DNA of 64,000 nt from a virus (taxonomy: Duplodnaviria > Caudoviricetes), in the IMG/VR virus record IMGVR_UViG_3300031555_003522, positions 143,862-207,861 of that record. The stretch is one strand, 5' to 3'. The notes under the pieces were generated by a model. The model was given only the letters and a program-made list of their open reading frames with translations, did no database searches and had not been told where the DNA came from. Below are positions 3,894-49,725 of the stretch, piece by piece; the first letter of the stretch is position 1; every line of letters begins with the position of its first letter. The position numbers and the translations under genes are program-made.

Positions 3894-3902
3894 TATATTT
3901 TA

Positions 3903-4784: not shown

Positions 4785-6638
4785 TTAAGATTCGATCTCT
4801 TCGGTAGAGAGAGCAACAACCTTAATCATTTCGGTCTGGATAAAGTCCTTATATGCGACCTTCAGAACAGCATAGAAGATCTTGTTGACAGAATAAGTTG
4901 CATCCTGGACGTACTCCAGAGTCAGAGTATTAAAGTTGCTACGATAAGCGGCAATGACTTCTTCAACATCAGCCTTATAAGCCTCGAGATCCTCACCCTC
5001 AAAGAAGGTATAACGGATAGCAGGGCAACGGGTACGGATAGCCTTAACAACTTCCTGAATACCCATGACGTTGTTGACAAAAGACCACTGACTGTACTTC
5101 TCCTGAGAGGTGTACAGAGCTTCAATAACCAGACGGTTGTCGATATAGGAAGCATAGTTTACACGCATATCCTCAAGGATTTCCTTCTGGTTGACAGTGG
5201 GACAGATAACAGGAGAGAAGGACAGAGTGCCATAAATGGCATTGTCAATACTCATGTTATACTTCATACCAGCAGTAGGCAGAATCCGACCATTGTTAAT
5301 ATGCTGGACAAGCTTGATAGCAATGTCGTAGCCAATGGTGACAGAAATCTGACGCTTGGTATAGGGATCAATGATATCATAAGACTGAGGATAGGTTGCG
5401 CAGAACATGCTCTTAGCCTCATCCTTACAATTAGATTCGATAGCATTGATAGTGGTAACCTTCAAGCCCTGATCACGGAAGTACATAAAGTCTTCACGGA
5501 ACATCGCCAGAGCTTCGATGGCACGCTTAACCTTTGCAGGATAGTTAGCATCGACAATAGCATCAATCTTATACTGATCCATATTGTAGATGACATTATC
5601 GAAAGTGCCGTTAAATGCTTCAACAGCCTGATCGGCCCAAGCATCAACAGCTTCGATGGGGTAGTCACCAAATGCGCCATTGGAACCACCAGACAACATC
5701 TGACCATACTCATACTGAAGGTTAATGCCATCAGCATCGAAAGTAATATTGGGCAGATCGGTACCACGATTGGTGCAGCCAAACAGCACATCGTACTTAT
5801 ACATAGCAGCGGCATCAATAGTGTCGTCGCCAGTAGCAGCAGCCAGAGCTTCAACATAAGCATCCAGCTGATCGGGGTATTCAATACACTGCAGCTGAGA
5901 GGAATTGGTAGAAACCATTCCCTGCAGAGAGATATTGACACCATTAGCAATCAGAGCATGGTTAGCACTGAAGGTCATAGATTCAACCTCAATATTACCT
6001 TCAAAGACCTGAAGAGTGTACAGAACATACTCCAGAGACTTAGAGACCTTATAGTTGGGGGTGATCTTAATACGCTTCTTGCTAGTACCACGACCATTGT
6101 CAGAAATGACATACAGAAGATACTCGCCCTCTGCCAGATTTTCGAGAATTGCATCAGCAGCCTCTTTGATAGTTGCGGTATTTTCTGCAGACTTGATGGA
6201 ATAAGTGACCTTATTCACAGTCTTGGAAACCATATAGGGAGTCTCAGTAACCTCAACAGTCTGGTTACCCTCGCTGTCAACATACAGCAGAGCGCCAGTT
6301 GCATCGGTACCCTGAACTTCGGTTTCCTCCTGAGTGATGGCGGCAACAATACCCATATTCGCCAGGGTTGCATCTTCAGCTACCAGACGCTTACACAACA
6401 GCTCTGCACCAGAGTTGATGGACATAGCGGCCTGCAGCAGAGGCTGACCATGACGCTTGAAGGAGATACTCTTGCCATACATCTTAAAGAAATCTTCGCC
6501 AGAGATACGGGTCCATGCTTCAGTACCCTTATCAGAACTAAATACAGCACAATACAGAGGCATATTACGGACTTCCGTAATAGGCAATGTAGAAATGCCG
6601 CTTTGGTCTTCATATTCAGCAATGAAACCAGGATACAT
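4785..6638 (-). CDS. Contractile tail sheath protein
   Basis: 617 aa; sheath-like features (MYPG start, LSGGSNG, IVDANYP, AMFREDFMYFRDQG); highly expressed codon usage; late promoter at 6713-6724. Confidence 0.8.
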   Translation of the reverse strand: MYPGFIAEYEDQSGISTLPITEVRNMPLYCAVFSSDKGTEAWTRISGEDFFKMYGKSISFKRHGQPLLQAAMSINSGAELLCKRLVAEDATLANMGIVAAITQEETEVQGTDATGALLYVDSEGNQTVEVTETPYMVSKTVNKVTYSIKSAENTATIKEAADAILENLAEGEYLLYVISDNGRGTSKKRIKITPNYKVSKSLEYVLYTLQVFEGNIEVESMTFSANHALIANGVNISLQGMVSTNSSQLQCIEYPDQLDAYVEALAAATGDDTIDAAAMYKYDVLFGCTNRGTDLPNITFDADGINLQYEYGQMLSGGSNGAFGDYPIEAVDAWADQAVEAFNGTFDNVIYNMDQYKIDAIVDANYPAKVKRAIEALAMFREDFMYFRDQGLKVTTINAIESNCKDEAKSMFCATYPQSYDIIDPYTKRQISVTIGYDIAIKLVQHINNGRILPTAGMKYNMSIDNAIYGTLSFSPVICPTVNQKEILEDMRVNYASYIDNRLVIEALYTSQEKYSQWSFVNNVMGIQEVVKAIRTRCPAIRYTFFEGEDLEAYKADVEEVIAAYRSNFNTLTLEYVQDATYSVNKIFYAVLKVAYKDFIQTEMIKVVALSTEEIES

Positions 6639-6712
6639 TAACGTTTCCTCCTTTATAATATTTATAATTTAAAAAGATCTTTAATGCATAAAATTAGAGC
6701 ATTACAGCTTTT

Positions 6713-9419: not shown

Positions 9420-9524
9420 AATTTAGTTTCCTCCTTAAATTTAGGTTTAATAAAATGTTTAATTTTTTCCTCATATAGTGATATGTTTTTATATAATGGG
9501 GTGGAAAACCACCCCATCAATATA

Positions 9525-11096
9525 TTACATAGTAGTCTTCCACTGCAACATGCTCAGAAGCAGTTCTTCAGAAACTACCTTACCAGAAGATGCAGCTTCA
9601 GCAGACTCTGCAACATTAGCAGAAGTGACAATGTTGGAGACCAAAACAGCATTCTCATCAGTGTAAGTCTTTGCGCCAGCAATAGCTTCAGTCTTAACGC
9701 CTGCCAGAGTCTCAGTCAGACCAGTGATCTTAGACTGAGGAACAGCGTTAATAGAAGCAGTACCATTAGCATCGACACCGATAGTAGCACCATCGGGCTT
9801 AACACCACCAATGGAATTTACAGTTGCAACAGGAAGCTCATAGACCTTGACATCCTGACCGTCAACAGCAATATGACCATTGGTTTCACCAGCAACGACA
9901 CTCTGTACGGCAGTATCAGCCTTAGCACCCTGCTCAGCAGTAGCAAAAGCATCAGGATCGTAGGCATCAGTAACAGCCTTTACCTCAGCAATAGCATCAG
10001 CAAGCTCCTTTTCCTTGGCCATAGCACGAGTCTCTTCCGCTTTAACAGCCTCAGCAATGTAGCCAAATACAGTAGTAGCAGTAGCACCCTCGGGCAGAGC
10101 ACCAACCAGTTCTTCCAGAGCCTTAATAGCAGTAGCATTGCTATTGATATTTTCATTCATCTTGGTGACATCGGTTGCATGATTCTCAGCCCAATCAACC
10201 AGTTCCTTCAGAGTGTCGAGGCCCTCAGAGCCTTCACCATCCAGATAAGTACTAATAACCTGAGCAATCTTGTAATCGACGGAACCCTCAGTCTGAGCAT
10301 TGGCATTCAGAGTCTTAATATCATTTTCGGTCTTAGTAACACGATCAGACAGAGCACCTTCAGCATTAGTAGCACGCTCAACCTCTTCGGCCAGCGCCTC
10401 ATCCTGAGTAGTCTTGTTGTTATCAACCTTAGTGTTGATTGCTTCGACTTCCTTCTGCAGGGAAGACATACTGGAAGACAGACCTTCAACGGTAATACGA
10501 GAGGGCTCGTACCAAGCCAGCTCATAGCCATTACCGGCAGCATTAGCAACAGCCTTGGGCTCCAAGCCACCAACCCAGCCCTGGGTCAGTTCATAGTAGC
10601 CATTAGTCTGAGGAGTAGTAGTAGCCTGTGCCCAAGCACCCTCGAGATACTGATAATAGACATCGCCAATCTTGACATAGTCTCTTTCAGAAGGAGATTC
10701 GGGCATAGCATCGGGATAGGTATACTCGCCTTCCAGAACGACATCTTCCATGTACTTATAGTACTCGACGCCGAAAGCCTTCAGACCAATAGTGCCACCA
10801 TCGCCGACAGAAATTGTCTTATCATCACCAACAACACGAGCACCCAGCTCCTTCAGAGTCTTATCGGGCTCGATAGAGTAATGAGTAACAACACCGTTTT
10901 CATAAACGGTGATCTTCTGGCCGATATAATACTTAGTATTAGTAGAGCCAGCATTCTCAGCAGTCTGAGCCGCAGCAAAGGCTTCATTATAGCTACCAAA
11001 CATGCTTCTCACGTCAAGCGGGAATGCACTCTTGGGCTCAAAGCCAACGGCAAAGCTCAGAATATTAGTTACCTTTTCATAACTATTTGCGCTCAT
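9525..11096 (-). CDS. Tail fibre-like virion protein with coiled coil
   Basis: 523 aa; FPLDVRS N-terminus, ERATNAE/LDTLKEL coiled-coil repeats, LPVATVNSIGGVK fibre motif. Confidence 0.6.
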   Translation of the reverse strand: MSANSYEKVTNILSFAVGFEPKSAFPLDVRSMFGSYNEAFAAAQTAENAGSTNTKYYIGQKITVYENGVVTHYSIEPDKTLKELGARVVGDDKTISVGDGGTIGLKAFGVEYYKYMEDVVLEGEYTYPDAMPESPSERDYVKIGDVYYQYLEGAWAQATTTPQTNGYYELTQGWVGGLEPKAVANAAGNGYELAWYEPSRITVEGLSSSMSSLQKEVEAINTKVDNNKTTQDEALAEEVERATNAEGALSDRVTKTENDIKTLNANAQTEGSVDYKIAQVISTYLDGEGSEGLDTLKELVDWAENHATDVTKMNENINSNATAIKALEELVGALPEGATATTVFGYIAEAVKAEETRAMAKEKELADAIAEVKAVTDAYDPDAFATAEQGAKADTAVQSVVAGETNGHIAVDGQDVKVYELPVATVNSIGGVKPDGATIGVDANGTASINAVPQSKITGLTETLAGVKTEAIAGAKTYTDENAVLVSNIVTSANVAESAEAASSGKVVSEELLLSMLQWKTTM

Positions 11097-11113
11097 TATT
11101 CTTTACCTCCTTC

Positions 11114-13036
11114 TTACAGAGTTACAGAGTAGGTGTTTTCCTTAGTGCTGGGATCAGAAGCATCCTCGTAGAAGACTACATAAGGAACAGCCTGATATCC
11201 ATTAGCACCCTCGACATTCACCTGTACATTAAGGAAAGCGGTGTTGATCTGAGCCATCATACCATTGTTATCAATGACAGAAGCCAGAGCAGCAACACCA
11301 ATAGAAGCGGGAACAGCAATAACAGTTCTCAGAGTACCGACAGGAATAGTCATATCAAATGCATGACCAGCAGCAACAGCTGCATCAGACTTACTCAGAC
11401 CACGAATGACAGCAGAAGTCAGTTCAGTCTTAGCAGTCAGACAGCCATAGAACATGTTACGATAGCCAGTAATAGCGGAAGAAGTCTTAGACTTGCTGCC
11501 ACCTTTAATCTGACCTGCAGCATAGGGATTACAAGTATTGGTAACAGGAATAGCGCCATCACCATAAGTTGCAGTAGCAGAAACAGTATAGTTGGTGTCA
11601 TCGGTAACAGTAATTCCATCAAAGGAACCATTGTTGCTAGTAGAGGAACCACCATCGGAGTTAGTTACCTCCCAAGAGGTAGCAGTAACACCAGTAGCGG
11701 GGCCATAAGTATACTTACCAGCATTCAGAGATGCAGCATAAGTAACATCGACAGAAGTACCAACTTCATACTCGCCAGCCTGATTCAAGGTTATAGAAAC
11801 AGAGGGCTGAGTAGTACTGGGATTAGCTTCCTTAATATAGATAGAATTCCAGACATCAATCAGGTTCTTTCCCTTAGCAGGAATAGTAGCCTGACCATTG
11901 GTCAACTTAAAGTTGCCAATTGCAGTCGTAGTGCTCAGATCTTCAGGGAAGAATACATTAGCAGCACTGTAATTGCCATCCATAGCTTCCCATGCGGTGC
12001 CATTGAAGACATATGCAGTATGCTGATACTTACCAGTACCCTCACCGATCTCAGTACGAACAATGCAAATATCGTGCTCAACAGGTGTATTGCCAGCAAC
12101 AGCTTCATCGATAGAAGCACCGATATATACCTTAGAGTTGGAGCCCAGATCCTCGAAGTTCTTGCCAGAATCAACAGCCTGGCCATCAGCACCCAGAACC
12201 AGAATATTGCCCTCAACACCATCGGTAACCTTATCCATCTTACCAGAGATGTCAATGGGTGCAACATACAGACCATTTTCATCAACAGTAATCAGGTTGT
12301 CAGAAGCGGTAGAAATCTTGACAGCACCAGTAATAGTATTACCAGTAACAGACAGATCAAGAGTGGTACTACCCTCGGCTTTATAGATATCAACCAGATC
12401 TTCAACAGGAATAGTGACAAAGTCAGTCTTCTCAGCATCGAAATACAGGTAGATAGCCTTTTCATCTACATTATATTCACCAGAGCTAACGAAACGTTCC
12501 AGATCGAGCTTAACTGCATTACCCAGAACATTACCACTAGCATCCAGCATCTTTAACTCACCACTAGCGGCAGTATACTGCAGGCTTACACCGAGACCAT
12601 CGAATACGATACTTTCGGTGCTATCATCGCCCTTAGTAACAGTTAACAGATGCTCAGCACTGTCCCAAGACAGTGCACTAACGCTACCTTCTGCAGTAGC
12701 CATCTTAGCCAGTTCACTAGCAACATAGGCCACGACAGCCTTGCCAGAAACGGGCACCTTTGCCTCGTCGATAACAGAATCAGACACAGCATTAATAACA
12801 GTCTTCCAACCATTAACAGCGCCCTGCCAGATCTTACCTTCGAGAGTTTCAGAATTAATGTACAATCTATTCAGAGCGGGAGACGTCGGCAGAGTTCCAG
12901 TATACATGATAACAGACTCTGTAAACGGCTCAGAACCCCGATAGATTTCTCGAGTGTCACTCAAAAAGTACATATGCCCTTCCTGGGGCGTACCATTGTG
13001 AAACATCTCAGATGTGACAAAATGCCAATTAATCAT
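11114..13036 (-). CDS. Tail fibre-like virion protein
   Basis: ATG at 13036 after GGAGG; YFLSDTREIYRG module; Thr/Gly-rich Ig-like C-terminal half. Confidence 0.6.
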   Translation of the reverse strand: MINWHFVTSEMFHNGTPQEGHMYFLSDTREIYRGSEPFTESVIMYTGTLPTSPALNRLYINSETLEGKIWQGAVNGWKTVINAVSDSVIDEAKVPVSGKAVVAYVASELAKMATAEGSVSALSWDSAEHLLTVTKGDDSTESIVFDGLGVSLQYTAASGELKMLDASGNVLGNAVKLDLERFVSSGEYNVDEKAIYLYFDAEKTDFVTIPVEDLVDIYKAEGSTTLDLSVTGNTITGAVKISTASDNLITVDENGLYVAPIDISGKMDKVTDGVEGNILVLGADGQAVDSGKNFEDLGSNSKVYIGASIDEAVAGNTPVEHDICIVRTEIGEGTGKYQHTAYVFNGTAWEAMDGNYSAANVFFPEDLSTTTAIGNFKLTNGQATIPAKGKNLIDVWNSIYIKEANPSTTQPSVSITLNQAGEYEVGTSVDVTYAASLNAGKYTYGPATGVTATSWEVTNSDGGSSTSNNGSFDGITVTDDTNYTVSATATYGDGAIPVTNTCNPYAAGQIKGGSKSKTSSAITGYRNMFYGCLTAKTELTSAVIRGLSKSDAAVAAGHAFDMTIPVGTLRTVIAVPASIGVAALASVIDNNGMMAQINTAFLNVQVNVEGANGYQAVPYVVFYEDASDPSTKENTYSVTL

Positions 13037-20724: not shown

Positions 20725-23700
20725 CGTTTATTACTTTATATCACTATAAAGACTAGACTATATCTTCATCTTAAATACTATTACCATATTTGAGATGCTC
20801 CCCATTTCGAACTCTATCAAGAGCCCTACTCTACTCGGTTATTCTCATAGATCTTTCTTCTATGATATCCTTTCGATAGTCGTTGAACCTTCCTCTATTG
20901 AGGCTTGGCTGCTGATTGTCTCAATGAGAGTTCCCAGCAATTAAAGGAGATTCTACATAATGTCACCACTATGCAGCCCTATTCTTAAGGAATTCGTTCT
21001 TCATTGTAATTAGGCATGCACGCTCATTATCAGAGTGAGCATTTGTGCAGTATCTATCCATAAAATCATTCAAAAGAATACCTACACAATATGCAAGAAT
21101 ATTTATAATGGAATATCTTAATCCATCCTGAGGTATAATTACCATTGGGTCAACTAATCTATCCATCTCAATCATATCATCATCAACAAAACTATATTCT
21201 GTAACCTTTCCAATTACAGGTTCTGTCTTTATTTCTCCATCATCGATAAACGTAGCAGCATCTACATTTTGTGTCTTAATCTTCATAGGAATCTCACAAC
21301 ACATTTGTCTTACATACTGATACCATCCATCAAATGATACAATTGCACTCGCTTTGTTCATATAGGATCGCAACTCCATACAGTTCTCTTATGAACTTCT
21401 ATATGTTTCCATATAGGCCAGACTATATCATCACCCTACTATGGGTGCCTCCCATTTCGATTTAAAAGGTCTTATTTGGACATCGCCTTACCCCATTATA
21501 AGCTTGGGCTCTACTCTACTAAGTTCATCTATAGATGCTTTTCGATAGTCGTTGAACGTTCCTCTGTGCGAGGATTCGCTGCTGATTGTCTTTTATAAAT
21601 TAATAAGAAGATTTTCCAGCAATTAGAGAGGTTATCGACGCATGTTTCCATGCAAAGGGACGTAAATATCTTCATCCGTGTCCTGAATAATACTGACAGA
21701 TCTGACTAGAGAATCCATCTTAGCCAATCTATCAATAATCTGCTTATTATAATATACATACTCATACAAGATATCTGTTAGAGCTTTAAGCGGCTCTATA
21801 ATATTCTCTGGAGGCTCATTAGGATCCATAAATGGAGCATCGAGACTCTGAAGTATGAATAGTATAGCTTGTGTGACAGGAGCGTTATCAATGAAATGAT
21901 ATAGATTATTCTTATAGAAGAGTCTATCGAGTTCATCTTGATTGAGCTTAGATAGAATTTCCCAAATTATATGCATTTCATCTTCACTAGGCACCCATCC
22001 ATATCCAGTACTAGAAAGTAACTGGAAGAAGGTTTCTTCAATAGAAGCATGAATAGTAATAATACCATTACTATTGAAATGATGCTCTTCTGTAAGCACC
22101 GTATGAATAAATTCAACGAGTTCATTCATGGAACTCATTGGTACATTATTATTTAAGAAAGATTCTAGGAATAGCGCGGCAGCACTATTGCAAGATCTAC
22201 CTTGAGTTGTAACACTGGAAGCAGTATAAAGATTATAGAAAATACAAGAATACTGCCCAGTAGCTCCATAAACAATATATTCAAGTGGTTCATTACTCCA
22301 CCCAGTTCTCTTATGAACTTCTTTAGCTTTCACCAAAGTTTAGACTATATCTTCATCCATAAAGGATGTCCAGTACAGGATCTCATGATTTGAGACCTCT
22401 TAGTCGTTGAACCTTCCTATTTCTAGGCTCGGCTGCTGATTGCCTATTGTACCATCCTTCTACTATTTCCATTTAGGCAAGAAGGCTTTAAGGTGTCCCA
22501 GCAATTCTCTGGATTTAATCGATACCATTACTGGTAAAGTGGACCTTAGTTAATCCATTCATCTGGAGCTTTAAAAATACCATCATTTTCATGATGGGTT
22601 AGACTATATCTTCATTCATTTAAGAATGGTCTCTGTTTCGAGCATTAAGCCCTACGTCTTTCGACTAGTCGTTGAACGTTCCTCTAAACAAGGCTTCGCT
22701 GCTGATTGTCCAATCTCTATATTTTCAAACATTCACGATTACTCTTTCAAGTTGCGTTGTAGTTATAGAGCTCTAAGGAGTTTCCAGCAATTAAGAGACT
22801 TTAACGACACCAATGGATTTAATTTAGCGTCGATCTTACGCAAGTACCTCATATCGCTATGAGGGCTAGACTATATCTTCATCTATATCTCTATTACCAA
22901 GATATAGATGCTCCCCATTTCGAGTTCACTAGAACTCTACTCTACTCGGTTATTCTCATAGATCTTTCTTCTATGATATCCTTTCGATAGTCGTTGAACC
23001 TTTATAAATCAGAATCAGTAATACAGAATTTCATATTAGTTTTTTCTTTCACAACTATGGCTACAATCTGATATTCATCTCTGTATACTATTTCAAGATT
23101 AGAACCATCAGACTCTAATCTTATCACATTGATGCTTTTATTCAATGCCGCTTTCTTTATTTCTCGAATAGCTTTATTGAATTTTCGATTACCTTTCTCT
23201 GTAAAGTAAGATATAGTACCATGAAGTATATCAAAAGGTCTTTCTAAATATCTATCAAAATACCATGATAATCTAAATGCTTCATCTTCATCGAAGATAT
23301 CATCGAGACCAACAAGAATTCCAGTATGTGGTCTACTACACCCAGATTCATATTCATATCTATAATACACATATCTCACTTCCTTTCTGATTTATACTTG
23401 GCTGCTGATTGTCTCAGTGAGAGTTCCCAGCAATTAAAGGAGATTCTACATAATGTCACCACTATGCAGCCCTAAAATTAAGGAGTAGCTGAAGTAGATT
23501 ATATTTCTCAAAATCTTCAGATCCTTTAGGATACTTGAACATTTCTTTCTTCATAGCTTTTCTATCATTTATAAAGCCATCGATCATTCCATACAGTGGA
23601 TTAGGAACAGTTCCGTGTCTCTTAAACAATACACCATAGGAAGTTATAATAGGTTCTTTATCCATGATATAGTTTGCCATATAACTCAAGGTAGAGTTGA

Positions 23701-29652: not shown

Positions 29653-29784
29653 TATTTACCCGTAGAGAGATAATGCTCTCTACGGGTATTTTCGTTAAAT
29701 AAAATAAGTTTAAAGATATAATATAATTATGAATAGATGAGAAATATTTCTCATCTATATCATTTATTTAAGGAGGCCAGAAAA

Positions 29785-31611
29785 ATGGCAAAGAGTAAGT
29801 ACTACGGAGTCCGTTTCACCGATGCCGTGAGATATTGGTGGATGGACAGAACTTTCGACATTGAAAAACATGTCGATAAGATGCGTAGAGATCGCGTGAA
29901 CCGTGCAGCCGGTACAAATTGCGAAGCCAAGGAGACTAATAGTGTCTCTAATAATAACAATGCTGCAACAACAACCGCTACCGAGACTAGTGTCAAGGAA
30001 GCTCCCGCTACCGATACTAAGAAGGAAAAGAAGAATATTTTCTCCAAAGTATTTGGTAAGAAAAATACTGAAGCTACAAGTACTTCTGAGGATCCTGTAG
30101 CCGAAGAATCCGAAGAAGTTATCGCCGCTTCTAAGGAAGCACCTGCAGAAGAACCCGGTGCAGAAAAAATGGAAAACAATAACGATCCCATTGTAGGCGA
30201 TATCTGTTCTGCCAATCAGCAGAATGGCCAGAACCCTGTCGAGGGTATCAACATTGGTGGTATCCATTTTGACATGGATATGACTGTTGAAGAAAAAGTA
30301 GAACCTAGTCTTCTTAAGCAGACATCTGTGAGTGATCAGAACAATATGTTCAATCAGCCTCAGGTATTCCCTGGGCAGCAGCCTGTGATGCAGAATTCTG
30401 CATTTGTACAGCAACCCGTTATGGGAACACATCAGATGAATGTTCCCTCGGGAACACCTCAGATAAATGTTCCCCCTATTCAGCAGCCCATTGTTAATCA
30501 GCCTATGACAACACCTCAGCAGCCCCCCATTCATCGAGTGGATGCACCTCCCAAGGTCATTACTCCCAAGCCTCCCAGAGCTGAAGCGGATCATGTAGAG
30601 GTAAGCAATACAAATATCGCTCAACCCTTCGTTGATCCGAATAAGCACAATAAGGTTATTCGTGATCAGCATCCTGATATCATTCAGAAGGAGACACCTC
30701 ATATTCCGGATAAGCCTTCTGAACAGTTGTACGACAACAGCTTGCTGATTGCAGCATTTCCCTATCTTGGAGAAATCCAGAGAATCGCATTGAAGCATCA
30801 TATCCAGCTTAAGATGGAAATGCTGGGTTATGCTGCAAATCCCATGATTCAGACTGGCATGGTATTGTGCTATGCATTCAATGATGGGACGAATATCTTC
30901 AATGAACTCAAGAGCTTTACGATCGATACCGGAAATATCATCGATCGTAGACCCAAGTTGTTCACAGGCATCGTTCTGAATGGGTTTGAAGATATGCCTG
31001 CATACGCTATCCAGATCAATGACAAGATCAATAAGAATAAGTATAACTTCAATGAAGAAATGTTCGAAAAGATCTTCGTTGGAGGTATCACTATGCTTGA
31101 TGGTCGCGGTATGTACACCCAGCAGTATCGCAAGCTCAATAAGATCGTTGATCTGAGCACTATGCCCACCAAGTTGATGAACGGTGAGCGCCGCAAGGCA
31201 GTTCAGGACCGTCTGGTAAAGGCTTTGACTGCCGGTGTATTCGACAAAGCTATTGCAATGGCACCTGGTTCCAGATTCGAGTTCAAGGATGATTCTTACG
31301 ATAAGGATCGTGGAACCTTCGTCCTGACCAATGTCAATGTACCTGTGACATTCAACGGACCTATCGTAAATACGATTCCTACCGAGATCACCTTTAAGAC
31401 CGGCGCCCAGGTGTTTGTCCACTCTCCCAATAATCCGCCTGCAGATACAGCTTCTTCTGATACCGCTCAGGAAGCCGAAACTCCTAAGCAGGAAAAGAAG
31501 ACAAAGAGCGGAAGCAAGAAATCCAATAAGAAACAGAATGAGGATAAAGTAGAGACAGAAGCCACTACAGAAACATCCTCTTCTAATGCCGCTAATACTA
31601 GCGAGAATTAA
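29785..31611 (+). CDS. Hypothetical early protein with long low-complexity (Q/P, E/T) linkers
   Basis: ATG at 29785 after AAGGAGG; terminator downstream. Confidence 0.7.
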   Translation: MAKSKYYGVRFTDAVRYWWMDRTFDIEKHVDKMRRDRVNRAAGTNCEAKETNSVSNNNNAATTTATETSVKEAPATDTKKEKKNIFSKVFGKKNTEATSTSEDPVAEESEEVIAASKEAPAEEPGAEKMENNNDPIVGDICSANQQNGQNPVEGINIGGIHFDMDMTVEEKVEPSLLKQTSVSDQNNMFNQPQVFPGQQPVMQNSAFVQQPVMGTHQMNVPSGTPQINVPPIQQPIVNQPMTTPQQPPIHRVDAPPKVITPKPPRAEADHVEVSNTNIAQPFVDPNKHNKVIRDQHPDIIQKETPHIPDKPSEQLYDNSLLIAAFPYLGEIQRIALKHHIQLKMEMLGYAANPMIQTGMVLCYAFNDGTNIFNELKSFTIDTGNIIDRRPKLFTGIVLNGFEDMPAYAIQINDKINKNKYNFNEEMFEKIFVGGITMLDGRGMYTQQYRKLNKIVDLSTMPTKLMNGERRKAVQDRLVKALTAGVFDKAIAMAPGSRFEFKDDSYDKDRGTFVLTNVNVPVTFNGPIVNTIPTEITFKTGAQVFVHSPNNPPADTASSDTAQEAETPKQEKKTKSGSKKSNKKQNEDKVETEATTETSSSNAANTSEN

Positions 31612-34702: not shown

Positions 34703-37283
34703 TTATTTTATGAATTGAGCAAGATTACCGGCTAATACAGAGTATGGTTGTTCATCTTCATCATTATAGAAGTTATCAAATACTTCATTAGGAATAGTTT
34801 GCACTTGTGAAGACATCTGAGGTATCATCATTTTATACCTATCAGATATAGATTTTTGTACAGCCTTATCAGATAGCAATCTTGTCATGCATTCTTCGTC
34901 CTTTTGTTGCTCTTGACGCATCCAATCTTCATAAAGAAGTTTACCAGGAGCATTTTCCATTGCTTGAACAGCTTGCTGGATTTCTTCATTATCGCTTACA
35001 TCAAGATCGGTAACAACTTCTTCATTATCTTCATGTATATCTACAACAGCCTCTTCAAGATCAGCATCTGTACGGAGCACCCTCTTTGTGATACCCCAAT
35101 TGTTCATCAAATCTCCACCGTTGTAATATACGAACAATCCCCACAGCCAAGAGAATACCTGGTCATCGTGAGTATTACTCGAATGCTCAATCTTACCATT
35201 CTTCTTAACCTCTAGGCCGCATAATTCTTCATAAATTGTAGGAGATATAATCTTATCTTTATGATATTCAACACGGTCTCTCAGAATTTCCATTAGGTTC
35301 TCGCGTTCTGCCTTTGTAGAATCGGAGCCATATACTTTAGTCTTTTGAGTGCGTTTATGTATCGCAGCACCAACTATTCTCTCTTCGATAACTTTATCTT
35401 TTATAGTATAGAATAGATTCTTTCTAATAGAAGTCTGTAAAAGACGCGCGATTACTGACGCGCCGAAACCCATTTGTTTATTACTGGACGCAACTCCAAT
35501 AACCTTGGCTCATTCCAAGCAGTTCCATTACAGAACCTGTGCAGATCATTTGTCATTCTAAACAGCCGTTAGAACGGGATTTTTCTTCCGCCATTAGCTT
35601 GCGGTTCTACTCTCTCGTCAAGAGATGATCGTTGAACGTTTATCTTATAAGATGTGGTATTCTTATAAGATATTTCGCTGCTATACATGGACTTGTCAGT
35701 GAATATTTAGGATTTAACCTTGTATTCATCCTTACTACTTTTTTATGCTTTCGCAACCATCACGCTCATCTTTACAGATCACGTTGTGGTGAGTAAGGCT
35801 CTTAACCCACTTCATAGCAATTAACACCTTGAAACATAAAGATCACTCTTTATGCTGCGATTGCTGTATAAGCTACGCCGTTTCGTTCGATATTTACTAC
35901 TGCATTAGGCATCCATTTTGAAACAATGTCATGGATTACCATTGCTAGTTCTGGGGTTGATATAAAATTACTATTAAGCTCTGCTGTTACTCTTGTGCTG
36001 AAAGAATCAATTATAGTAATTGCAGAGGAGTCTCTTTGATAACCGCCAGAGACGTCAACTCCAATAATGGGCGGATACTTCATATTAATCTTCTCATAAA
36101 TTTTGAGTTCATACTTATTGAGAAGAAGCACTGTATTGATAGGATGCTTAAGTAGACCCTTAATAGTATCCAAATCTTCTGCTCTGAAAGGAGAGTTCTC
36201 AGAAGAATTAGACCATTCAAGCAAAACTTCTCGACGGATTGCATCCCAGTCTTTACGCATTGTAATACAGAGATCTCTAAACCACTGTTCGCTCTTACCG
36301 AGTTGCTGGTATGTATACTTAATGTAAATAAAGTTAGAGTTGGTATTACTATTGACGATATCATAAATCTGTTCCTTGGTAAGGTCATACCATCTTTCAC
36401 TGAAGGGAGTAGCATTCTCCTTCATATTGAAAGCTTCTACGCCTTCATCTGTAGTAAGCATACCAGGAGTAGTAGTAACCAGCATTCCATAAGGACTACC
36501 ATTTCTCTTAGCATTCTGAGAAGCAGTATTAAATGCAGGAACCATGTTAGTATAAATAATGGAGTTATATTGAATAAAGCCATACTCGTCGATATAGATA
36601 ATCGGAGTTGTACGACCACGCATCAGGCTAGCTGCAGCAACTTTATTTCTTGCAGAAGCAACGGTTCTGATACGGTTATTATTTACAGGATGCTGTAATG
36701 TCTCAACGTTATTCTTACCCTTGATTCTAGATCCATCAGGAGCAAATGCTTGATCCATCTTGAGCCAAGAAGGTAATAATGCTCTAAGTTCTCGAATACG
36801 CTGTAAGTTTAATTTAGAGTCATCAAGCTTCTTATTAAGGAAGCTCATTTCAGCATTGGCTGTGCCAAAATTAAACAGATACAAATACCAGCAAAGACTA
36901 GACATAGTCTTACCAGTCTGACGAGGCATCTCTAAGAATGTATTCAAGTTAAGCATTAGGGCAAAAATTAATGCAAGGTTACCTCTAGAGAGCTCAAATT
37001 TAACACCTGTAGCTTGGCCAGAATCTGGAATTCGTACTATTTCTCTAAAGAAGTACCAAGGGTTAAAGATACACTCTCTAAGAACCTTAGTCTTCATCAT
37101 AGCACTTAAATTAGGATCATATGGATCTATTCTTGCTAGATCAGGATCCAATAAAACTAGCATAAATCTATTGTTTTCTATACCAGCATCTTTAAGATAT
37201 CTGTGTACTTCTAGAAAACTTTTATTGGTTGTACTCATATGATAATACACTGTGGTCTGAGTTTGACCATACATAATAGCCAT
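34703..37283 (-). CDS. terL: Terminase large subunit, spliced (exon 1 37283-~35877, exon 2 ~35470-34703)
   Basis: Walker A MPRQTGKT, Walker B IYIDE, coupling motif TTTPG, nuclease IGVDVSGG, NIERNG|GFGASV, HDDQVFS. Confidence 0.88.
35471..35876 (-). mobile_element. Group I intron in the terminase nuclease domain (~406 nt, no ORF; boundaries +/-3 nt)
   Basis: P AATTGCTATG / Q TATAGCAGC, R GTTCAACGATCAT / S ATGATCT (compensatory changes); P9 hairpins; ends ..AACAAATG. Confidence 0.8.
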
Positions 37284-37380
37284 AGAAGTTCCTCCTTTCA
37301 TATGAGTAGCAAAGATATTAATTATAAGTTGACTTCTATACCCCTTATTCGAGCTAATGGTAATTAGAGAAATGAATGAT

Positions 37381-37398
37381 AATATATTATAAATATGA
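37381..37398 (+). promoter_or_regulatory. Early (virion RNAP-type) promoter motif
   Basis: AATATATTATAAATATGA; identical 18-mer at 40461-40478. Confidence 0.6.
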
Positions 37399-37442
37399 AA
37401 TAATATGATACTCAAGTATCAAAATAAAAGGAGAATGAAACT

Positions 37443-39513: not shown

Positions 39514-40353
39514 TTACTTATTAGACATCGCTTTAGCCATTTCTAAGCAGAAACCTTCAATTTCATTATGGATATGATTCTCCAGATTAACAACAAAAAT
39601 GTCACCAGTCTTAGCAACAAGCTGCACTTTGCTACCACCGTCAATCAGGGTAGAAGATTCATACATAAAGTCAATCTGATTCAGTAAAGACTTAATATTT
39701 GCAGACTCGCTCTTAATGTAGGAAAGAACACTTTCATTTGTAATAGGAATCAATCTGCCATTATTATTTATACGCTCTATTTCAATCTCAGTACTAATAG
39801 TGCCAGACTCAGTGACTAATCTAGTGGTATAAGCATGAGGATGAGACGGGTAAATAACCCTATCCCATGTAATAACGCGCAGATTCTTAACGACATTACG
39901 ACCATGAAGATTCTCTAAAGAACCAAGAGCTCTCAAAGACCAGCTAGGCAGAACACCTTCGCGAAGATCCTGATCAAACTCTTCACCCTTTTCATTATTA
40001 GTGCCCTTGAACTGAGCCATGACATTATTACCATCCATCCAAATCTTGGTAAAGCGAGCAACAGTGTTATTAGGATCAATAGTCTGCTGACGCATCATAG
40101 AAGTGTCCATAGGATGGCCATTCTCAGACAGCATATTACCAGTACTTAAGAGCTCAATAGTACGAGGACAGTTAATTTCTCTAAGCAGATCGGGCTGTAA
40201 ATAACAGCGGCCGTTACGATTTTCTTCTTCTGCAGTCTGGATAATACCCTCTCCAAGAACTCTCTTGCCAGTATCGGAAATAACCTTAGCCTGGGGGATT
40301 TCAATAGGAGCACTTTCCAGAATGACAAAACCAATAGTTGGTTTATTAGACAT
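39514..40353 (-). CDS. Prohead core protease (T4 gp21-like)
   Basis: NRNGRCY, ENGHP (His), SWSLRALGS (Ser), ITWDRVIYPSHPHAY (Asp). Confidence 0.85.
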   Translation of the reverse strand: MSNKPTIGFVILESAPIEIPQAKVISDTGKRVLGEGIIQTAEEENRNGRCYLQPDLLREINCPRTIELLSTGNMLSENGHPMDTSMMRQQTIDPNNTVARFTKIWMDGNNVMAQFKGTNNEKGEEFDQDLREGVLPSWSLRALGSLENLHGRNVVKNLRVITWDRVIYPSHPHAYTTRLVTESGTISTEIEIERINNNGRLIPITNESVLSYIKSESANIKSLLNQIDFMYESSTLIDGGSKVQLVAKTGDIFVVNLENHIHNEIEGFCLEMAKAMSNK

Positions 40354-40521
40354 AATATAAACCTCCCGAATTTTAATTCAATTATCGATATGTTGGCTAA
40401 TTTGATTGCTTTAGGCTATTTGAATTTATTTATACAAATGTGAAACTTATCTTATATGAAAATATATTATAAATATGAGTAGACAAAAACCACAACTACT
40501 AATGACAAGGAGAATGAAATC

Positions 40522-41274
40522 ATGGGCAACTATAAGTTTTTCACAAAAGAGGAAGATCAGCTTATCCTGGATAACTATCAGACTATGGGATCTAGAATCA
40601 CAGATCTATTTCCTAATAGATCCAAGGCATCTGTTATGGGACGTGCAAATAAGTTAGGAGTTCATATCAGCAAAACTGTTTCTGATTGGACAAATGAGGA
40701 AGAAGATATCCTTAGAAAGCACTATCCTAAAATTGGAGTTAAGGTAATAGATATGCTACCGAATAGAAGCGAGTATGCTATTAAAAATCGCGCTTCAGTT
40801 TTAAAGATTAAAGGTCCTTCTGCATGGACCAAGGAAGAAGATTATCAGATAAGAAAGCATAATATGGAAATTAGTAAAGAACTGATGGAATTGCTTCCTG
40901 GTAGATCTGAAGGTGCTATAAGAATTAGAATTAAGCAACTTCAGACCGCTAAATTGACATCTAATAAAGATAAATATACTTATATGAGTTATCCTCTCAA
41001 TATTTATATATTGGTATTTGGAACTCATAAAGGATATGATAAAATCTATCCTGAATTTGATAGCATAATTACTAAGCATCTTGATGCGATTATTAAGCAT
41101 AATCCCGATAAAATTGATTATGCAACCAAGATGGTAGAAGCATTTGATTTGAGGTTTAAGAAGCATCTCCCGGCATATGATATTTCAAGGGAACTAAATA
41201 TATCTGAAGATATGGTAAATAAACTTTGTGTACAATGCATCAATATCTTTAAACGCACAATGGTTAAACACTAA
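40522..41274 (+). CDS. DNA-binding protein with three Myb/SANT-like repeats and a C-terminal HTH
   Basis: (F/W)TxEE..I...Y......L.(N/G)RS..(A/S)(I/V)..R x3; C-terminal AFDLRF..YDISRELNISE..V sigma4-like HTH. Confidence 0.7.
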   Translation: MGNYKFFTKEEDQLILDNYQTMGSRITDLFPNRSKASVMGRANKLGVHISKTVSDWTNEEEDILRKHYPKIGVKVIDMLPNRSEYAIKNRASVLKIKGPSAWTKEEDYQIRKHNMEISKELMELLPGRSEGAIRIRIKQLQTAKLTSNKDKYTYMSYPLNIYILVFGTHKGYDKIYPEFDSIITKHLDAIIKHNPDKIDYATKMVEAFDLRFKKHLPAYDISRELNISEDMVNKLCVQCINIFKRTMVKH

Positions 41275-41340
41275 TATGATAAAAGGCTCTGAAAGGGGCC
41301 TTTTATTTTTTATTAAATAAAAAATATTAAACTTATGTAT

Positions 41341-41703
41341 AAGAGAGTAATCACGATATATTGAGCAAGACATTCAGGGCTTGGGAGATATATACTTTTT
41401 AAAATATATAGGAAGTGGTGAGCCTGTATATTTTTCAGATTACTCTTTCATTCTTTATTGTGCGTGGAGAACACAATAAAGAGATGAGGCGAAATGATTA
41501 TGGAGTATAATGATGAAAGGATCTTTTATACAAGATCCGGATTATTACAGATGCCTGATCAGCATCTGTAATAATTTTTGTTTTAATCATCTTAACATAT
41601 CATTGAGCTGAATTATGGTGGATATTTGGTTTGGCATGGTTGAAATTTCCTTTCGTAAAATGAGTCTAGTGTCTTTTTAGGCACTAGACTCATATCTTTT
41701 TAT
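41341..41703 (+). ncRNA. Candidate late-transcribed structured ncRNA (~360 nt)
   Basis: AACT-N6-TA motif puts +1 at 41341, the start of a long closing stem; at least 5 hairpins; G.U pairs valid only on +; ends in a terminator; no ORF in the track. Confidence 0.55.
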
Positions 41704-41813
41704 AGACGTATATTATATTCACGAGTATATTACAAATTAATCTAATTCTCCACAATAAAATAAATGAGAGCATTTGTAGTGTACTCATTAAAAATATTAA
41801 AGGAGAAATTGAC

Positions 41814-42581
41814 ATGAAAAAGAATCACAAATGCAAAAATCCTAATGGATGTACTTGCGATAATAACCATGAAAATGAGGTTACTATTGTAGAAATGCAT
41901 CCTGCAATTCCTACAGCCATTAATGGCGATAATAATGGCTATGATCCCAATCGTCCCTATGCTATTCCTGTAACGTGTGTTGAATGCTTTGGTGCACATT
42001 CTAATGCTCAGCCGATTTGTATACCTGATAAATATTGGGGTAATCTCGACAGCCATGTGGAATATATGGCTGGACATTTGGAAGATACAACTCGGCTAAT
42101 TAGATATATGGGTAGAAGTTTTGGTGCACCAGATTCTTATGTATGTACTAAGGATAACAAACTTGGTTATGGAGTAACTAATCCGGCTTCTGGACGTTTT
42201 ATGTATGGTATGGAGTTTGGTGGTAGTGATGATACTCTTCCTGTTGATACCGTTATTACATTTACAGAAAATAATGGTTTGCGCCATGCTGCAATGAATA
42301 GTAATGATGAGATTATTGATCTCGGCCCTGTAACCAACCCTGTAGTTATTGGCCCCAGAAGCCACCCTCAGGCACTGGTAGTTCCTATGGCAAATATCTC
42401 TGCTGTTACTAAAGCTGAAGATATGCTGTATAATGCTATTATAAACCATATTGAAGATCAGTCTGCTAATCCTTGTCCTAGAATTGAAGAAAATAAGAAA
42501 TTGGAAAAGGTAGCAGATTCTAAATGCATTCATACTCTTCCTATGGTTAAGCATTTTGAAGAAGACAAATTACCTTTCTGA
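41814..42581 (+). CDS. Hypothetical late protein (Cys/His/Pro-rich N-terminus)
   Basis: 255 aa, AAGGAG RBS. Confidence 0.65.
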   Translation: MKKNHKCKNPNGCTCDNNHENEVTIVEMHPAIPTAINGDNNGYDPNRPYAIPVTCVECFGAHSNAQPICIPDKYWGNLDSHVEYMAGHLEDTTRLIRYMGRSFGAPDSYVCTKDNKLGYGVTNPASGRFMYGMEFGGSDDTLPVDTVITFTENNGLRHAAMNSNDEIIDLGPVTNPVVIGPRSHPQALVVPMANISAVTKAEDMLYNAIINHIEDQSANPCPRIEENKKLEKVADSKCIHTLPMVKHFEEDKLPF

Positions 42582-45932: not shown

Positions 45933-45944
45933 AACATCATGGTA
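45933..45944 (+). promoter_or_regulatory. Late promoter AACA-N6-TA (major capsid)
   Basis: AACA TCATGG TA. Confidence 0.65.
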
Positions 45945-46023
45945 AAATATTGTCCCTTGTGACGTATTTACAGATACAATCTCTATATTTTATTAAGCTT
46001 AGTAAGAAAGGAGCATAAATATT

Positions 46024-47811
46024 ATGCCTATTGTTGGTAATCGCAAGTCTACTGTATCGATGGGTAATCATTATGGTTATGATGCCCTTCATGCATATGC
46101 AGAGAGCTTCCGTGAGTGCGCCAATGAGATTCGTCACGAAGGTGTTGACCTGTTCATTGAGCCTCATAAGGCCCTTATGCTGCCCGCAACCCGTAACGCT
46201 CTGAAGAACTTCTATGTCGAAAATTGCTTCGATCAGAACGAGTTCACTAAGACCGATCCTGGCCATGCTGCCGCACTGGCCGAAGATGCTCGCCTGATGG
46301 CTGAAGCTCAGTTCGAGAACGATCTGGACGCTATCAACGAGCATACCAACCTGGCTGCCGCTAACCCTGTTATCGGTATGACCTTCCCCCTGCACAAGAA
46401 TATCATGATGAACAACGTCTTCGACAAGGGTGCTATTCCCAAGTTCGTTGCACGTGAGCCCAAGTTCACCATCTCCATGGAGAAGCGCATTCTGGTTACT
46501 CCCGAGGGTGAAGAGATCGATATGTTCAAGGAACAGTATCGGATCCGCGATGCTATCGCCGCTACCGCTCCCTATCATGTTCTTGAGCTGACCCTGCCCC
46601 AGACCGACGGCCAGACCGACGTTCTGCTGGCTTGTGGTGGTACTGATGGTGACAACCTGTCCATCGATACCTATATCTCCGCTGTTAAGGTTACTGGCGT
46701 GACCCTGGCTGCTGGCGATATCAACCCCGAAACTGGCCTGCCTGTTGATGCTGAAGGTCAGTACGACTTCTGGATGCCCGTCAACCTGAAGTTTGCCCCC
46801 TCTTATGGTGAGATCGATCGCGCTATCGTCGAAGAAGTCCAGCTGACTGCTCGCGATGCTGCTGATACCACCAAGACTGTCGTTATGAAGGACGTTATTA
46901 CCGGTTACATGCGGAACAACAAGTTTATGCTGGCTGCTTCCACTGGTCTGGTTTCTGCCGTTCGTCTGAGCGCCCGTCTGGATACCTCCAGCGCTATGGT
47001 CAAGACCTGCTCTGTCCGCTGGAAGGTTAATACCGATATCGTTGAAATCGGTTCTGCTATCCCTGTTAACACCACTGTCTCTCCCGAGGAAGTCAAGGAT
47101 CTGGGTGCACTGTACAATGTTAACCAGCTGTCCAAGATTCTGTCCCTGATGAAGACTGTTCTGGGTGAGTACAAGGATGGCGAGATCAAGAAGCATCTGG
47201 ATAACTCTTTCATGACTATGCCTGCTTCTAACAAGATCGCTACCACTTTCGACTTCGCTCCTCGTCAGGGCTACGCTCTGGACCACGTCGAGTGGCGTTA
47301 TAAGACCTTCATGGACTTCCTGGATTCTGTCACCACTGGCATGTTCCAGGTCCTGAATGATCCCAACATGACTGTCACCATCTTTGGTGCTCCCGAGCTG
47401 GTTCGTAAGATTACTCCTACCGAGTACACCTACCAGACTCCTTCCAATATCGGTCCTGTTGAGCTGGACTTCGTTAAGACCGTCGTTACTTCCGACAAGC
47501 GCGTCTATCAGTTCATCTCTTCCGATAAGCTGCGTGGTAACAACAATCTGATCATCGTTCTGTGCCCCCGCAATACCAACCGTATTGTTTACCGCATCTA
47601 CGACTATCAGATGTACGTTTCCAACGAGATCCGTAACATGAACAATCCTGCTCTGCCCGCTATCCATGCGTTCGAACGCTGGAAGTTCGTCGAGTATCAG
47701 CCTGTTCAGGGTCGTATCCAGATTAAGCATCCCACTGGTCTGACCGAGATCGCTCCCAATGAGGATCCCATCGGCGGTCAGTACATGAGTGACTTTAATC
47801 TGCTGAAGTAA
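46024..47811 (+). CDS. Major capsid protein precursor
   Basis: 595 aa; very strong codon bias; N-terminal propeptide-like segment ending about AINE; own promoter and terminator; in the head cluster. Confidence 0.8.
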   Translation: MPIVGNRKSTVSMGNHYGYDALHAYAESFRECANEIRHEGVDLFIEPHKALMLPATRNALKNFYVENCFDQNEFTKTDPGHAAALAEDARLMAEAQFENDLDAINEHTNLAAANPVIGMTFPLHKNIMMNNVFDKGAIPKFVAREPKFTISMEKRILVTPEGEEIDMFKEQYRIRDAIAATAPYHVLELTLPQTDGQTDVLLACGGTDGDNLSIDTYISAVKVTGVTLAAGDINPETGLPVDAEGQYDFWMPVNLKFAPSYGEIDRAIVEEVQLTARDAADTTKTVVMKDVITGYMRNNKFMLAASTGLVSAVRLSARLDTSSAMVKTCSVRWKVNTDIVEIGSAIPVNTTVSPEEVKDLGALYNVNQLSKILSLMKTVLGEYKDGEIKKHLDNSFMTMPASNKIATTFDFAPRQGYALDHVEWRYKTFMDFLDSVTTGMFQVLNDPNMTVTIFGAPELVRKITPTEYTYQTPSNIGPVELDFVKTVVTSDKRVYQFISSDKLRGNNNLIIVLCPRNTNRIVYRIYDYQMYVSNEIRNMNNPALPAIHAFERWKFVEYQPVQGRIQIKHPTGLTEIAPNEDPIGGQYMSDFNLLK

Positions 47812-49212: not shown

Positions 49213-49599
49213 TTATTCTGTATATGGTGCTATAACTCTTGGTTTGGTAATATCTCCTCCGACAAATACTATTATCCATTTAGATCCACTTGGTATAAAC
49301 CTATCGTCATCTGCAATATAGAACATAGAGCATACCTCTCTCGGAATCTTAATAGTAATATAATTACTTACGCTCAATGTCTCTATTTCTATATTTTTAT
49401 TCTTATTCATTAGACTACTTTTATTTTGATGAATCTTAGATTCAATTAAACGAGAGTTATCCATATTTGGAGTTAATACAGGGATTATAAATTTTACCTC
49501 ACCAGGGTTAAGTCTATCTATTTGTTGCATAGCTATTCCTATTTCAGGATATCTGAGATCCATATTATCATAAAAATTTATAATAGAATCCATAATCAT
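49213..49599 (-). CDS. Baseplate hub/spike OB-fold protein (T4 gp5 N-terminal-like)
   Basis: VKFIIPVL..IPSGSKWIIVFVGGDITKPRVIA pattern. Confidence 0.5.
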   Translation of the reverse strand: MIMDSIINFYDNMDLRYPEIGIAMQQIDRLNPGEVKFIIPVLTPNMDNSRLIESKIHQNKSSLMNKNKNIEIETLSVSNYITIKIPREVCSMFYIADDDRFIPSGSKWIIVFVGGDITKPRVIAPYTE

Positions 49600-49725
49600 T
49601 TCACCTCTTATTTGTAAGTTAAATTTTGTAATTAATACCTTCTATAACTTTAAAAGTAATAATATATTATATTTGAGATAATAAAAATATTATCATAAAA
49701 ATAAATTTAAAAGGAGAATTTAATT

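Follow-up and report, generated by a model that had tools for sequence, protein, structure and literature searches.

The window considered here is the last 64 kb of the IMG/VR virus record IMGVR_UViG_3300031555_003522 (Caudoviricetes; 207,861 bp, 34% G+C). Between a gene for a Myb-like regulator and a 255-aa gene of unrecognized family, the window carries a gap that an original prediction, made from the letters alone, had read as a stand-alone structured RNA of ∼360 nt with its own late promoter and terminator (Table 1). Judged by comparison with relatives, the locus is real and under strong constraint, and it specifies a plus-strand non-coding RNA whose control signals are of the late type. 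The locus is without an Rfam match, without a counterpart in the four cultured AR9-like phages searched, and without a copy elsewhere in the genome. The explanation that we consider best, at somewhat short of an even chance for the whole of it, is that an uncultured jumbo phage distantly related to AR9 and PBS1 has here a conserved locus for late non-coding RNA. The locus would make two RNAs, and the second of them would mask translation start regions. The late-type promoter, the terminator, the strand, and the structure of the original prediction all stand; that the product is a single 360-nt transcript is not settled.

The locus and its control signals

The hairpins, the AACT-N6-TA motif, and the terminal hairpin with its T run were each found at the positions first claimed for them, and a terminator scan places the claimed terminator of the upstream gene just behind that gene. 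Two elements had been missed: the U run that follows a 16-bp hairpin, P10, and makes it score as a terminator, and a second late-type motif within the locus. The statement that the gap holds no open reading frame (ORF) is nearly right, in that ORFs are present and none exceeds 33 aa. The longest of them (41510-41611) was rejected as a gene, being broken by 1- and 2-nt indels in relatives; a minus-strand ORF of 16 codons starting at 41637 was rejected on account of a 1-nt indel that shifts its frame in relatives.

Table 1. Features of the RNA locus and of neighboring genes (window positions; paired arms are joined by "with")
Feature	Position	Strand	Evidence or remark
Intrinsic terminator of the upstream gene	41278-41307	+	Terminator scan; hairpin and T run kept with compensatory changes in relatives
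Late-type promoter AACT-TATGTA-TA (AACTTATGTATA)	41330-41341	+	Predicted start A41341
5' three-way domain of the putative RNA-A	41343-41447	+	P1, P2, P3 (consensus fold)
P1 stem GAGAGTAATC/GATTACTCTT	41343-41352 with 41438-41447	+	Invariant, 97.8% paired
P2	41356-41393	+	1 compensatory pair
P3 stem AAAATATATAGG/CCTGTATATTTT	41401-41412 with 41423-41434	+	Loop AAGUGGUGAG; 2 compensatory pairs
P4 hairpin TCTTTATTGTG/CACAATAAAGA	41452-41462 with 41472-41482	+	11 bp; invariant loop CGUGGAGAA; 1 compensatory pair, 2 U.G variants
Purine-rich linker, start-region look-alike (GAGG, AUG at 41494, GGAG)	41484-41521	+	Invariant in 10 sequences
P9 hairpin GGAUCUU/AAGAUCC	41519-41525 with 41532-41538	+	Invariant loop UUAUAC; 2 of 7 pairs compensatory
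P10, 16-bp hairpin (41539-41577), loop CUGAUCA, then UUUUUGUUUU	41539-41587	+	Terminator scan; 3 compensatory pairs
Internal late-type motif AACA-TATCAT-TG	41594-41605	+	Predicted start of the putative RNA-B, G41605
P11 hairpin, loop GGUGGAU	41604-41633	+	12 bp; 6 pairs vary one-sidedly via G.U, 1 compensatory
Anti-start-region segment GCAUGGUUGAAAUUUCCUUUCGU: CAU (anti-AUG) and UUCCUUUC (anti-Shine-Dalgarno) at natural spacing	41634-41656	+	
Locus terminator, hairpin of 14-15 bp (41660-41693) and U run	41660-41701	+	Terminator scan; 9 of 13 pairs compensatory
Early-type promoter GTATATTAT-N6-G for gene 41814, outside the RNA	41708-41723	+	Conserved in relatives
Large terminase subunit gene	35850-37415	-	
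T4-type prohead protease gene	39514-40353	-	
Myb-like regulator gene	40522-41274		Directly upstream of the RNA locus
255-aa gene, family not recognized	41814-42581		Downstream of the 539-nt gap after the Myb-like gene

The promoter motifs are of a type described for phage AR9, whose late consensus, AACA-(6N)-TA/G, has its final base at the transcription start, and whose early consensus is AAATATATATTAT-(6N)-G (PMC5312081). The first motif of the locus fits the late consensus except for a T at position 4, which half of the intergenic copies in this genome likewise carry; AACA and AACT are equally common in the genome. All relatives keep this first motif, as AACT-CATATA-TA. Genome-wide, 91 of the 278 copies of AAC[AT]N6TA fall in the 11% of the genome that is intergenic, a three-fold over-representation there, and with the ending T[AG] allowed, 53 of 113 intergenic copies stand 0-40 nt before a gene start on the same strand. 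The early motif TATATTAT has 45 of its 90 copies in the same intergenic 11%. As TATATTAT-N6-G it stands 43-110 nt before many genes, for example at 41708-41723, 40463-40480, 37384-37400, and 49663-49680 of the window.

All promoter-type motifs of the gap lie on the plus strand. The terminator scan returned four sites in 1.7 kb against 0.6 expected, and the three of them in or beside the gap (41278-41307, 41539-41577, and 41660-41693) are on the plus strand. Insulation of the locus on both sides is thus supported, by the terminator of the upstream gene at one end and by the downstream gene's own early-type promoter at the other.

The phage that would read these signals appears to bring its own transcription machinery. 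The closest cultured relatives of its prohead protease, at ∼30% identity, are the proteins of Bacillus phages Goe21, AR9, and PBS1, Yersinia phage phiR1-37, and Staphylococcus jumbo phages. Outside the window, two separate genes (genome 3757-4269 and 128179-128433) match the RNA polymerase beta-subunit domain Rpb2_6, which fits a pair of virion and non-virion polymerases; with two beta-like genes, the phage would therefore be a distant member of the group that transcribes with two multisubunit polymerases of its own. We infer that late transcription is carried out by the phage's non-virion RNA polymerase, with start sites, ends, and timing as predicted from the motifs.

Some further motifs adjoin these signals. 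Before gene 41814 stands a conserved CACA-ATAAAA-TA (41751-41762), late-like with a C for the first A, so that this gene, with an early and a late-like motif, may have both promoters, as do the "continuously expressed" genes of AR9. Next to it, the octamer UUCUCCAC (41748-41755) is complementary to the P4 loop GUGGAGAA; about half of the relatives allow perfect pairing or pairing with a single G.U, the others have one mismatch, and the octamer overlaps the late-like motif. Sites complementary to GUGGNG loops are not enriched in leaders. Just upstream of the first late motif most relatives carry AATCATC (alignment columns 108-120; the window has AATATTA), and the same heptamer precedes the internal motif (41584-41593). 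This repetition could represent a shared upstream element or the trace of a duplication.

Conservation and selection on the RNA

Relatives were obtained by two routes only, from Logan/ENA contigs through the 255-aa neighbor and from IMG/VR through the protease. The first route gave 11 homologues of the neighbor (51-67% identity) on contigs that share the gene order and have a gap of 520-570 nt. These 11 syntenic relatives keep the locus at 88-92% nucleotide identity; the gap aligns at 86-94% identity over 41300-41600, against 55-75% for the flanking genes. With four-fold degenerate sites of the adjacent protease gene as the neutral yardstick, the RNA core differs from relatives by 8-12% and those sites by 40-51% (window against five relatives). 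The locus persists in contig L007, which lacks the Myb-like gene, and equally in L027 and L029 of the second route. Missing at this position in all three contigs, the Myb-like gene 40522-41274 is variable cargo in the stretch that separates the protease gene from the RNA locus.

The second route gave four IMG/VR contigs with 77-79% protease identity. A covariance model of the 3' half of the locus, R1, matches the syntenic spot in three of the four, with E = 3e-7 for L027, a member of a more distant clade. The L027 RNA is 453 nt long and folds with z = -8.8. Its P9 has the same loop and two further compensatory pairs. Hairpins with different stems stand at the positions of P3 (stem kept, loop different), P4 (a wholly different stem, with loop AGGUGAUG), and P10. 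In the fourth contig, L029, the corresponding place is taken by a 355-nt unit that has in common with the window only a 3' module and the control signals. Both L027 and L029 have a 5' hairpin in the part corresponding to RNA-B, as counterpart of P11.

Beyond these relatives the locus was not recovered. R1 has no match in AR9, Goe21, phiR1-37, and SA1, and none of these four phages has a long gap adjoining its protease gene. Within this genome neither nhmmer nor R1 found a further copy. The phage collection, searched at the DNA level for near and for distant matches, gave none. Exact patterns of the hairpins had no match in IMG/VR, and an invariant pattern of 28 nt had none in that database, in the JGI metagenomes, or in the GTDB genomes. 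The two flanking proteins led to no relatives in IMG/VR or the JGI metagenomes, whether they were used singly or as an alignment. The Rfam library of 4227 models, against which the original prediction had suggested a comparison, matched no family in the gap at E up to 10 and none in the relatives at E up to 0.05. Among the families without a match in the gap at E up to 10 are tmRNA, RNase P, 6S, the group I intron, phi29 pRNA, GOLLD, ROOL, OLE, and HEARO, and ARAGORN reported no tRNA or tmRNA. The Rfam search was working, as it found four group I introns elsewhere in the window.

The fold is far more stable than its composition would give. For a 381-nt stretch the minimum free energy is -116 kcal/mol, against -80 ± 5 for shuffled sequences (z = -7.0). 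The RNAalifold consensus of nine full-length sequences has 120 pairs in 13 helices, and in the 11-sequence alignment 98.4% of the cells are paired. Compensatory changes occur in 19 pairs, whereas shuffles give 6.6 ± 1.7 and none of 500 reaches 19; controls in which the partners were slid by 1-3 columns give at most 3 such pairs. The covariation that had been proposed as a check on the prediction is thus present, and the structure is conserved. By helix, the compensatory pairs lie in the terminator (9), P10 (3, one of them seen in five sequences and one in four), P9 and P3 (2 each), and P2, P4, and P11 (1 each), so the support from covariation is local, helix by helix. Against too broad a reading stands the make-up of the alignment, which comprises ∼10 distinct sequences from a narrow clade.

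The strand can be read from the same alignment. G.U accounts for 188 of 1187 paired cells (16%) and A.C for 5, so the product is a plus-strand RNA, as originally claimed. Several pairs run from A-U through G.U to G-C, and the G.U intermediates of P9 function on the plus strand only. The consensus fold of the plus strand has -111 kcal/mol and 110 pairs; that of the minus strand has -88 kcal/mol and 81 pairs and is thus 23 kcal/mol weaker. Together, the G.U pattern and the weaker minus-strand fold indicate selection at the level of the plus-strand RNA, not on a DNA palindrome. They bear directly on the alternative that the gap, which lies near the terminase and prohead genes, is an inverted-repeat element serving as origin of replication or as packaging site. 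Such an element would be in keeping with an AT-rich gap, ∼4 kb away from the terminase gene, in which several inverted repeats of 11-16 bp are perfect, but the 16% of paired cells that are G.U would be A.C mismatches in DNA cruciforms, the transitions pass through G.U intermediates, and the promoter and terminator motifs that flank the unit are confined to one strand. We regard a DNA-level function as extremely unlikely.

Scarcely more probable is a cis-acting leader or attenuator, in which the late transcript would be a long 5' leader and the terminator would be read through conditionally into the operon from 41814 onward. The locus does lie directly upstream of a conserved operon in all relatives, and its length would be typical of T-box or protein-dependent leaders. 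Rfam, however, matches no T-box or riboswitch; the terminator arms covary freely (9 of 13 pairs) and everything upstream is invariant, so that there is no conserved antiterminator or competing helix; and the downstream gene has its own early-type promoter and the late-like CACA-N6-TA motif after the terminator.

Two observations from elsewhere in the window are recorded here. The four group I introns (75.7-94.3 bits, Rfam) lie within ∼2 kb on the minus strand (20734-22835). ORFs of 520-620 aa overlap almost fully on opposite strands at 45937-47811, 9483-11132, 29737-31611, and 3798-6641; such long opposite-strand overlaps are unusual at 34% G+C, and in relatives the plus-strand gene, of 595 aa, is the one called.

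One transcript or two, and the possible role of RNA-A

From its signals the locus most likely makes two tandem late RNAs, a reading toward which we lean modestly. RNA-A would extend over ∼41341-41585 (∼240 nt), with several hairpins (P1-P4 and P9) and invariant loops, and would end at P10 and its U run. RNA-B would start from the internal AACA-N6-TG motif, extend over ∼41605-41700 (∼95 nt), and consist of a hairpin, a single-stranded CAU-N10-UUCCUUUC segment, and the locus terminator. Read-through at P10 would also yield a 360-nt form. Folded alone, RNA-A has -73.8 kcal/mol (z = -5.8) and RNA-B -31.4 kcal/mol (z = -4.1).

The U5 run after P10 is invariant. The internal AACA-TATCAT-TG is a perfect match to the AR9 late consensus, with its use as a promoter predicted. 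All relatives of the window clade keep its AACA and T[AG] while the N6 between them varies, and the other clades have AACA-TATATT-TG (L027) and AACA-TATTAT-TA (L029). The order of hairpin, U run, and AACA-N6-TR recurs in three clades with unrelated hairpin sequences.

The alternative is one 360-nt RNA from 41341 through P10 to 41700, with a 5' domain, P4, and a 3' domain, which might act as a large structured RNA or as the scaffold of a ribonucleoprotein. It would be held together by three long-range helices (helices 6-8), in which AUGAGG pairs with CUUUCGU, UGAUUAUG with CAUGGUUG, and GAUGA with UCAUC. This is the architecture that RNAalifold returns for the nine full-length sequences, and helices 6-8 are 95.6-100% paired; the pairing of P8 would also explain the AAUCAUC beside the internal promoter motif. 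Yet none of the 26 pairs of helices 6-8 shows a compensatory change, and helix 6 varies through G.U wobble only. The long-range duplexes, at -9 to -13 kcal/mol, are no better than what the average real start region of this phage would provide (-12.7 kcal/mol). In L027, moreover, P8 has been deleted, and the fold of that RNA gives the 3' part another partner upstream. A terminator-like P10 with its U run, an internal promoter motif kept in three clades, and the lack of covariation in helices 6-8 together favor two tandem units, and we consider the single RNA rather unlikely.

Two points weigh against the division into two RNAs. Within the window clade no variation is seen in the top of the P10 stem or in its loop, which includes the palindrome GAUC, whereas the final terminator varies freely. 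Such invariance is unusual for a mere terminator, so P10 is more than that, and read-through may be the rule. In addition, the chance of meeting one internal AACA-N6-TR in 360 AT-rich bases is ∼1 in 4 by a rough estimate from base frequencies.

If two RNAs are made, the invariant loops of RNA-A suggest binding to a protein or to another RNA. The original prediction had noted exposed GGAG and GGUGA motifs, reminiscent of CsrA-titrating RNAs or of Shine-Dalgarno decoys. The motifs themselves are present (three GGAG, two GGUG), and they would fit a sponge or decoy whose UGG(A/U)G loops and GGAG/GGUGA motifs titrate a CsrA-like or phage-encoded protein, or the 30S subunit. UGG[AU]G has four copies where 0.73 would be expected (P = 0.005, a post hoc test), placed in three apical loops (P3, P4, and P11) and once in a linker by our reading of the consensus fold, and all four are invariant; motifs of the GGUGA type recur in L027 (AGGUGAU, twice) and also in L029. 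GGA is not enriched, however (7 against 4.64 expected from 5000 shuffles, P = 0.16), nor are tetramers resembling a Shine-Dalgarno sequence (8 against 4.4, P = 0.09), and the P3 loop motif is not kept in L027. No Rfam model of CsrB, CsrC, RsmY, or RsmZ matches within 41150-41900 at E up to 10. Among the phage's own genes there is no match to CsrA (PF02599), for which control genomes were positive; that result covers the phage record, as distinct from the genes of the host. CsrA titration thus finds no backing, and a ribosome decoy is weakly possible, the opposite signal, of an anti-Shine-Dalgarno and anti-AUG segment, being the stronger. Overall we hold the sponge or decoy to be quite improbable.

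RNA-A could alternatively be a small mRNA. With GAGG at 41486 and AUG at 41494, the linker opens a micro-ORF (41494-41571) for a peptide of 17-25 aa (MIMEYNDERIFYTRSGL...), for which the upstream hairpins would form a structured 5' leader and RNA-B a possible antisense regulator. In every sequence of the window clade a Shine-Dalgarno-like GAGG precedes the AUG by 4-6 nt. An ORF of the same frame (MNEMYVRSLYTGPGL) is present in L027 as well; it follows an in-frame gap of 6 nt and has its stop where half of the window clade has it. Codons 16-18 change synonymously (GGA/GGC, UUA/CUA, UAA/UAG), and a real gene at 49599 on the minus strand is headed by the same geometry, GAGG-NGAA-AUGAUUAUGGA.

The substitutions nevertheless follow the RNA. 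Four of the six are non-synonymous, all but one of the six fall in stem pairs of P9 or P10, and between clades the replacements I to S, F to L, R to G, and S to P change jointly as compensatory stem changes. The stop falls at codon 18 in some sequences and 8 codons later, at codon 26, in others. Not one of the first 27 nt varies, although nearby synonymous sites have diverged by ∼45%, and coding therefore cannot explain the conservation. L027 has GAGA in place of GAGG, L029 is without a similar ORF, and the MIMEYNDERIFYTRSGL peptide is hydrophilic, unlike type I toxins. A peptide-coding role for RNA-A accordingly appears improbable to us. As a type I toxin-antitoxin pair the two RNAs were rejected, with a hydrophilic peptide and an RNA-B/RNA-A duplex of only -9 to -13 kcal/mol. 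Separately, the start region of gene 49599 (AGAGGUGAAAUGAUUAUGGA, window 49585-49613, minus strand) matches the RNA-A linker (UGAGGCGAAAUGAUUAUGGAG) at 17 of 20 bases; the nhmmer E value of 0.4 is not significant.

The anti-start-region segment and known RNA systems

RNA-B as predicted exposes CAU-N10-UUCCUUUC, which mirrors the layout of a translation start region; the Shine-Dalgarno consensus of this phage is AAAGGAG. When RNA-B is folded alone, the anti-Shine-Dalgarno part is unpaired in the predicted structure. Against 196 start regions of the phage the mean duplex energy is -12.75 kcal/mol, compared with -9.97 ± 0.59 for 200 shuffles, and the best duplex has -26.8 kcal/mol, compared with -20.4 ± 2.1; no shuffle reaches either value. 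All three clades keep UUCCUUUC just before the terminator, and L029 has three pyrimidine tracts, two of them with CAU at the distance of a start codon.

Such an RNA would pair with the Shine-Dalgarno sequence and the start codon of mRNAs. The pairing would keep ribosomes off them, making RNA-B a broadly aimed translational repressor of the late phase. No specific conserved target emerged, as no candidate ranks high in all three phages compared, and the mechanism would therefore be generic or multi-target. We regard a generic or multi-target block of start sites by RNA-B as possible though doubtful.

Several results weigh against it. Among colinear partners in the window, gene 37443 has the start that pairs best, at -25.3 kcal/mol, and its orthologues reach only -15.4 and -13.0 though the RNA segment is invariant; this start region, a real pairing in the window that is lost in relatives, was rejected as the conserved target, and other candidates vary. 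The advantage of early-class genes in this pairing is slight (P = 0.023 in comparison with all other genes, P = 0.12 in comparison with late-only genes). Shuffling destroys the anti-Shine-Dalgarno motif, so the energy test shows that the motif is present, not that it is used. An anti-start region on one strand is moreover a start region on the other, and here the minus strand does have its 16-codon ORF, frameshifted in relatives. Duplex prediction with the whole RNA against all start regions did no better than shuffles.

Outside the window, the genome has two more ORF-less late units, at 41668-41978 (minus strand, motif start 41888) and 115721-116140 (plus strand, motif start 115792). Each has a late motif and, ∼100 nt later, CAU-N6-10-CUCCUU; on the opposite strand these two gaps have only ORFs of 9-10 codons. 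They may be further late RNAs with anti-start-region segments. One can go on to imagine a late RNA program in which this locus and at least two other ORF-less late units mimic the anti-Shine-Dalgarno tail of 16S rRNA, mask start sites, and reallocate translation, with RNA-A as a new class of structured RNA that regulates them or acts as their partner. Read from sequence, so extended a scheme seems to us a long shot.

The non-coding RNAs of virulent jumbo phages are almost unexplored. A review of phage small RNAs (PMC12197685) is without the words "jumbo", "virulent phage", and "lytic phage", and its examples come from lambdoid phages, P1/P7, and Shiga-toxin phages or prophages. The locus described here is as conserved as the adjoining prohead protease gene, shows covariation at the RNA level, and has promoter motifs for the phage's own polymerase, which together amount to strong comparative evidence for the use of dedicated late RNAs by AR9-like phages. 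A new RNA family can be seeded from the alignment and the covariance model.

How RNA-B would compare with regulation in other phages depends on whether masking is real. Phage T4 shuts off its early mRNAs through the proteins RegA and RegB. Masking by RNA-B, if true, would be the RNA counterpart of that shut-off and would give a simple and testable model for the temporal control of translation in phages that are independent of host transcription.

Among bacterial RNAs, the Firmicute small RNAs RsaE/RoxS and RNAIII of S. aureus use C/U-rich anti-Shine-Dalgarno seeds of the type CCCC/UCCC. The likeness lies in an unpaired pyrimidine-rich motif beside the terminator that can pair with a G-rich Shine-Dalgarno sequence, with several copies in L029. 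The difference lies in the lack of sequence or Rfam similarity to these RNAs, in the motif itself (UUCCUUUC), and in an origin from a phage genome under a promoter for a phage polymerase. GOLLD, ROOL, and other large Rfam RNAs resemble the locus in their size of hundreds of nucleotides, their many hairpins, their invariant loops, and their phage context, whereas no Rfam model matches here and the locus is smaller and perhaps makes two RNAs.

The late units of AR9 have the same promoter architecture and start-site rule and are paired in the same way with an early class, TATATTAT-(6N)-G (PMC5312081). They differ in the fourth promoter base, an A in the AR9 consensus and a T in the first motif here. 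As described in that source they drive protein genes, one tRNA gene, or antisense RNAs, and the passages on them name no stand-alone structured RNA (PMC5312081). The nearest functional parallel from phages would be the c4 antisense RNA of P1 and P7, which binds around the ribosome-binding site of the ant mRNA and blocks its translation (PMC12197685). Like c4, RNA-B would be a phage-encoded, trans-acting RNA in which a complementary segment covers the ribosome-binding site and the structure presents that segment, here as predicted. The c4 RNA is found in temperate phages, where it acts in immunity and on a single defined target, whereas RNA-B would belong to an AR9-like jumbo phage and would bring a generic anti-Shine-Dalgarno and anti-AUG segment to bear where no single conserved target was found.

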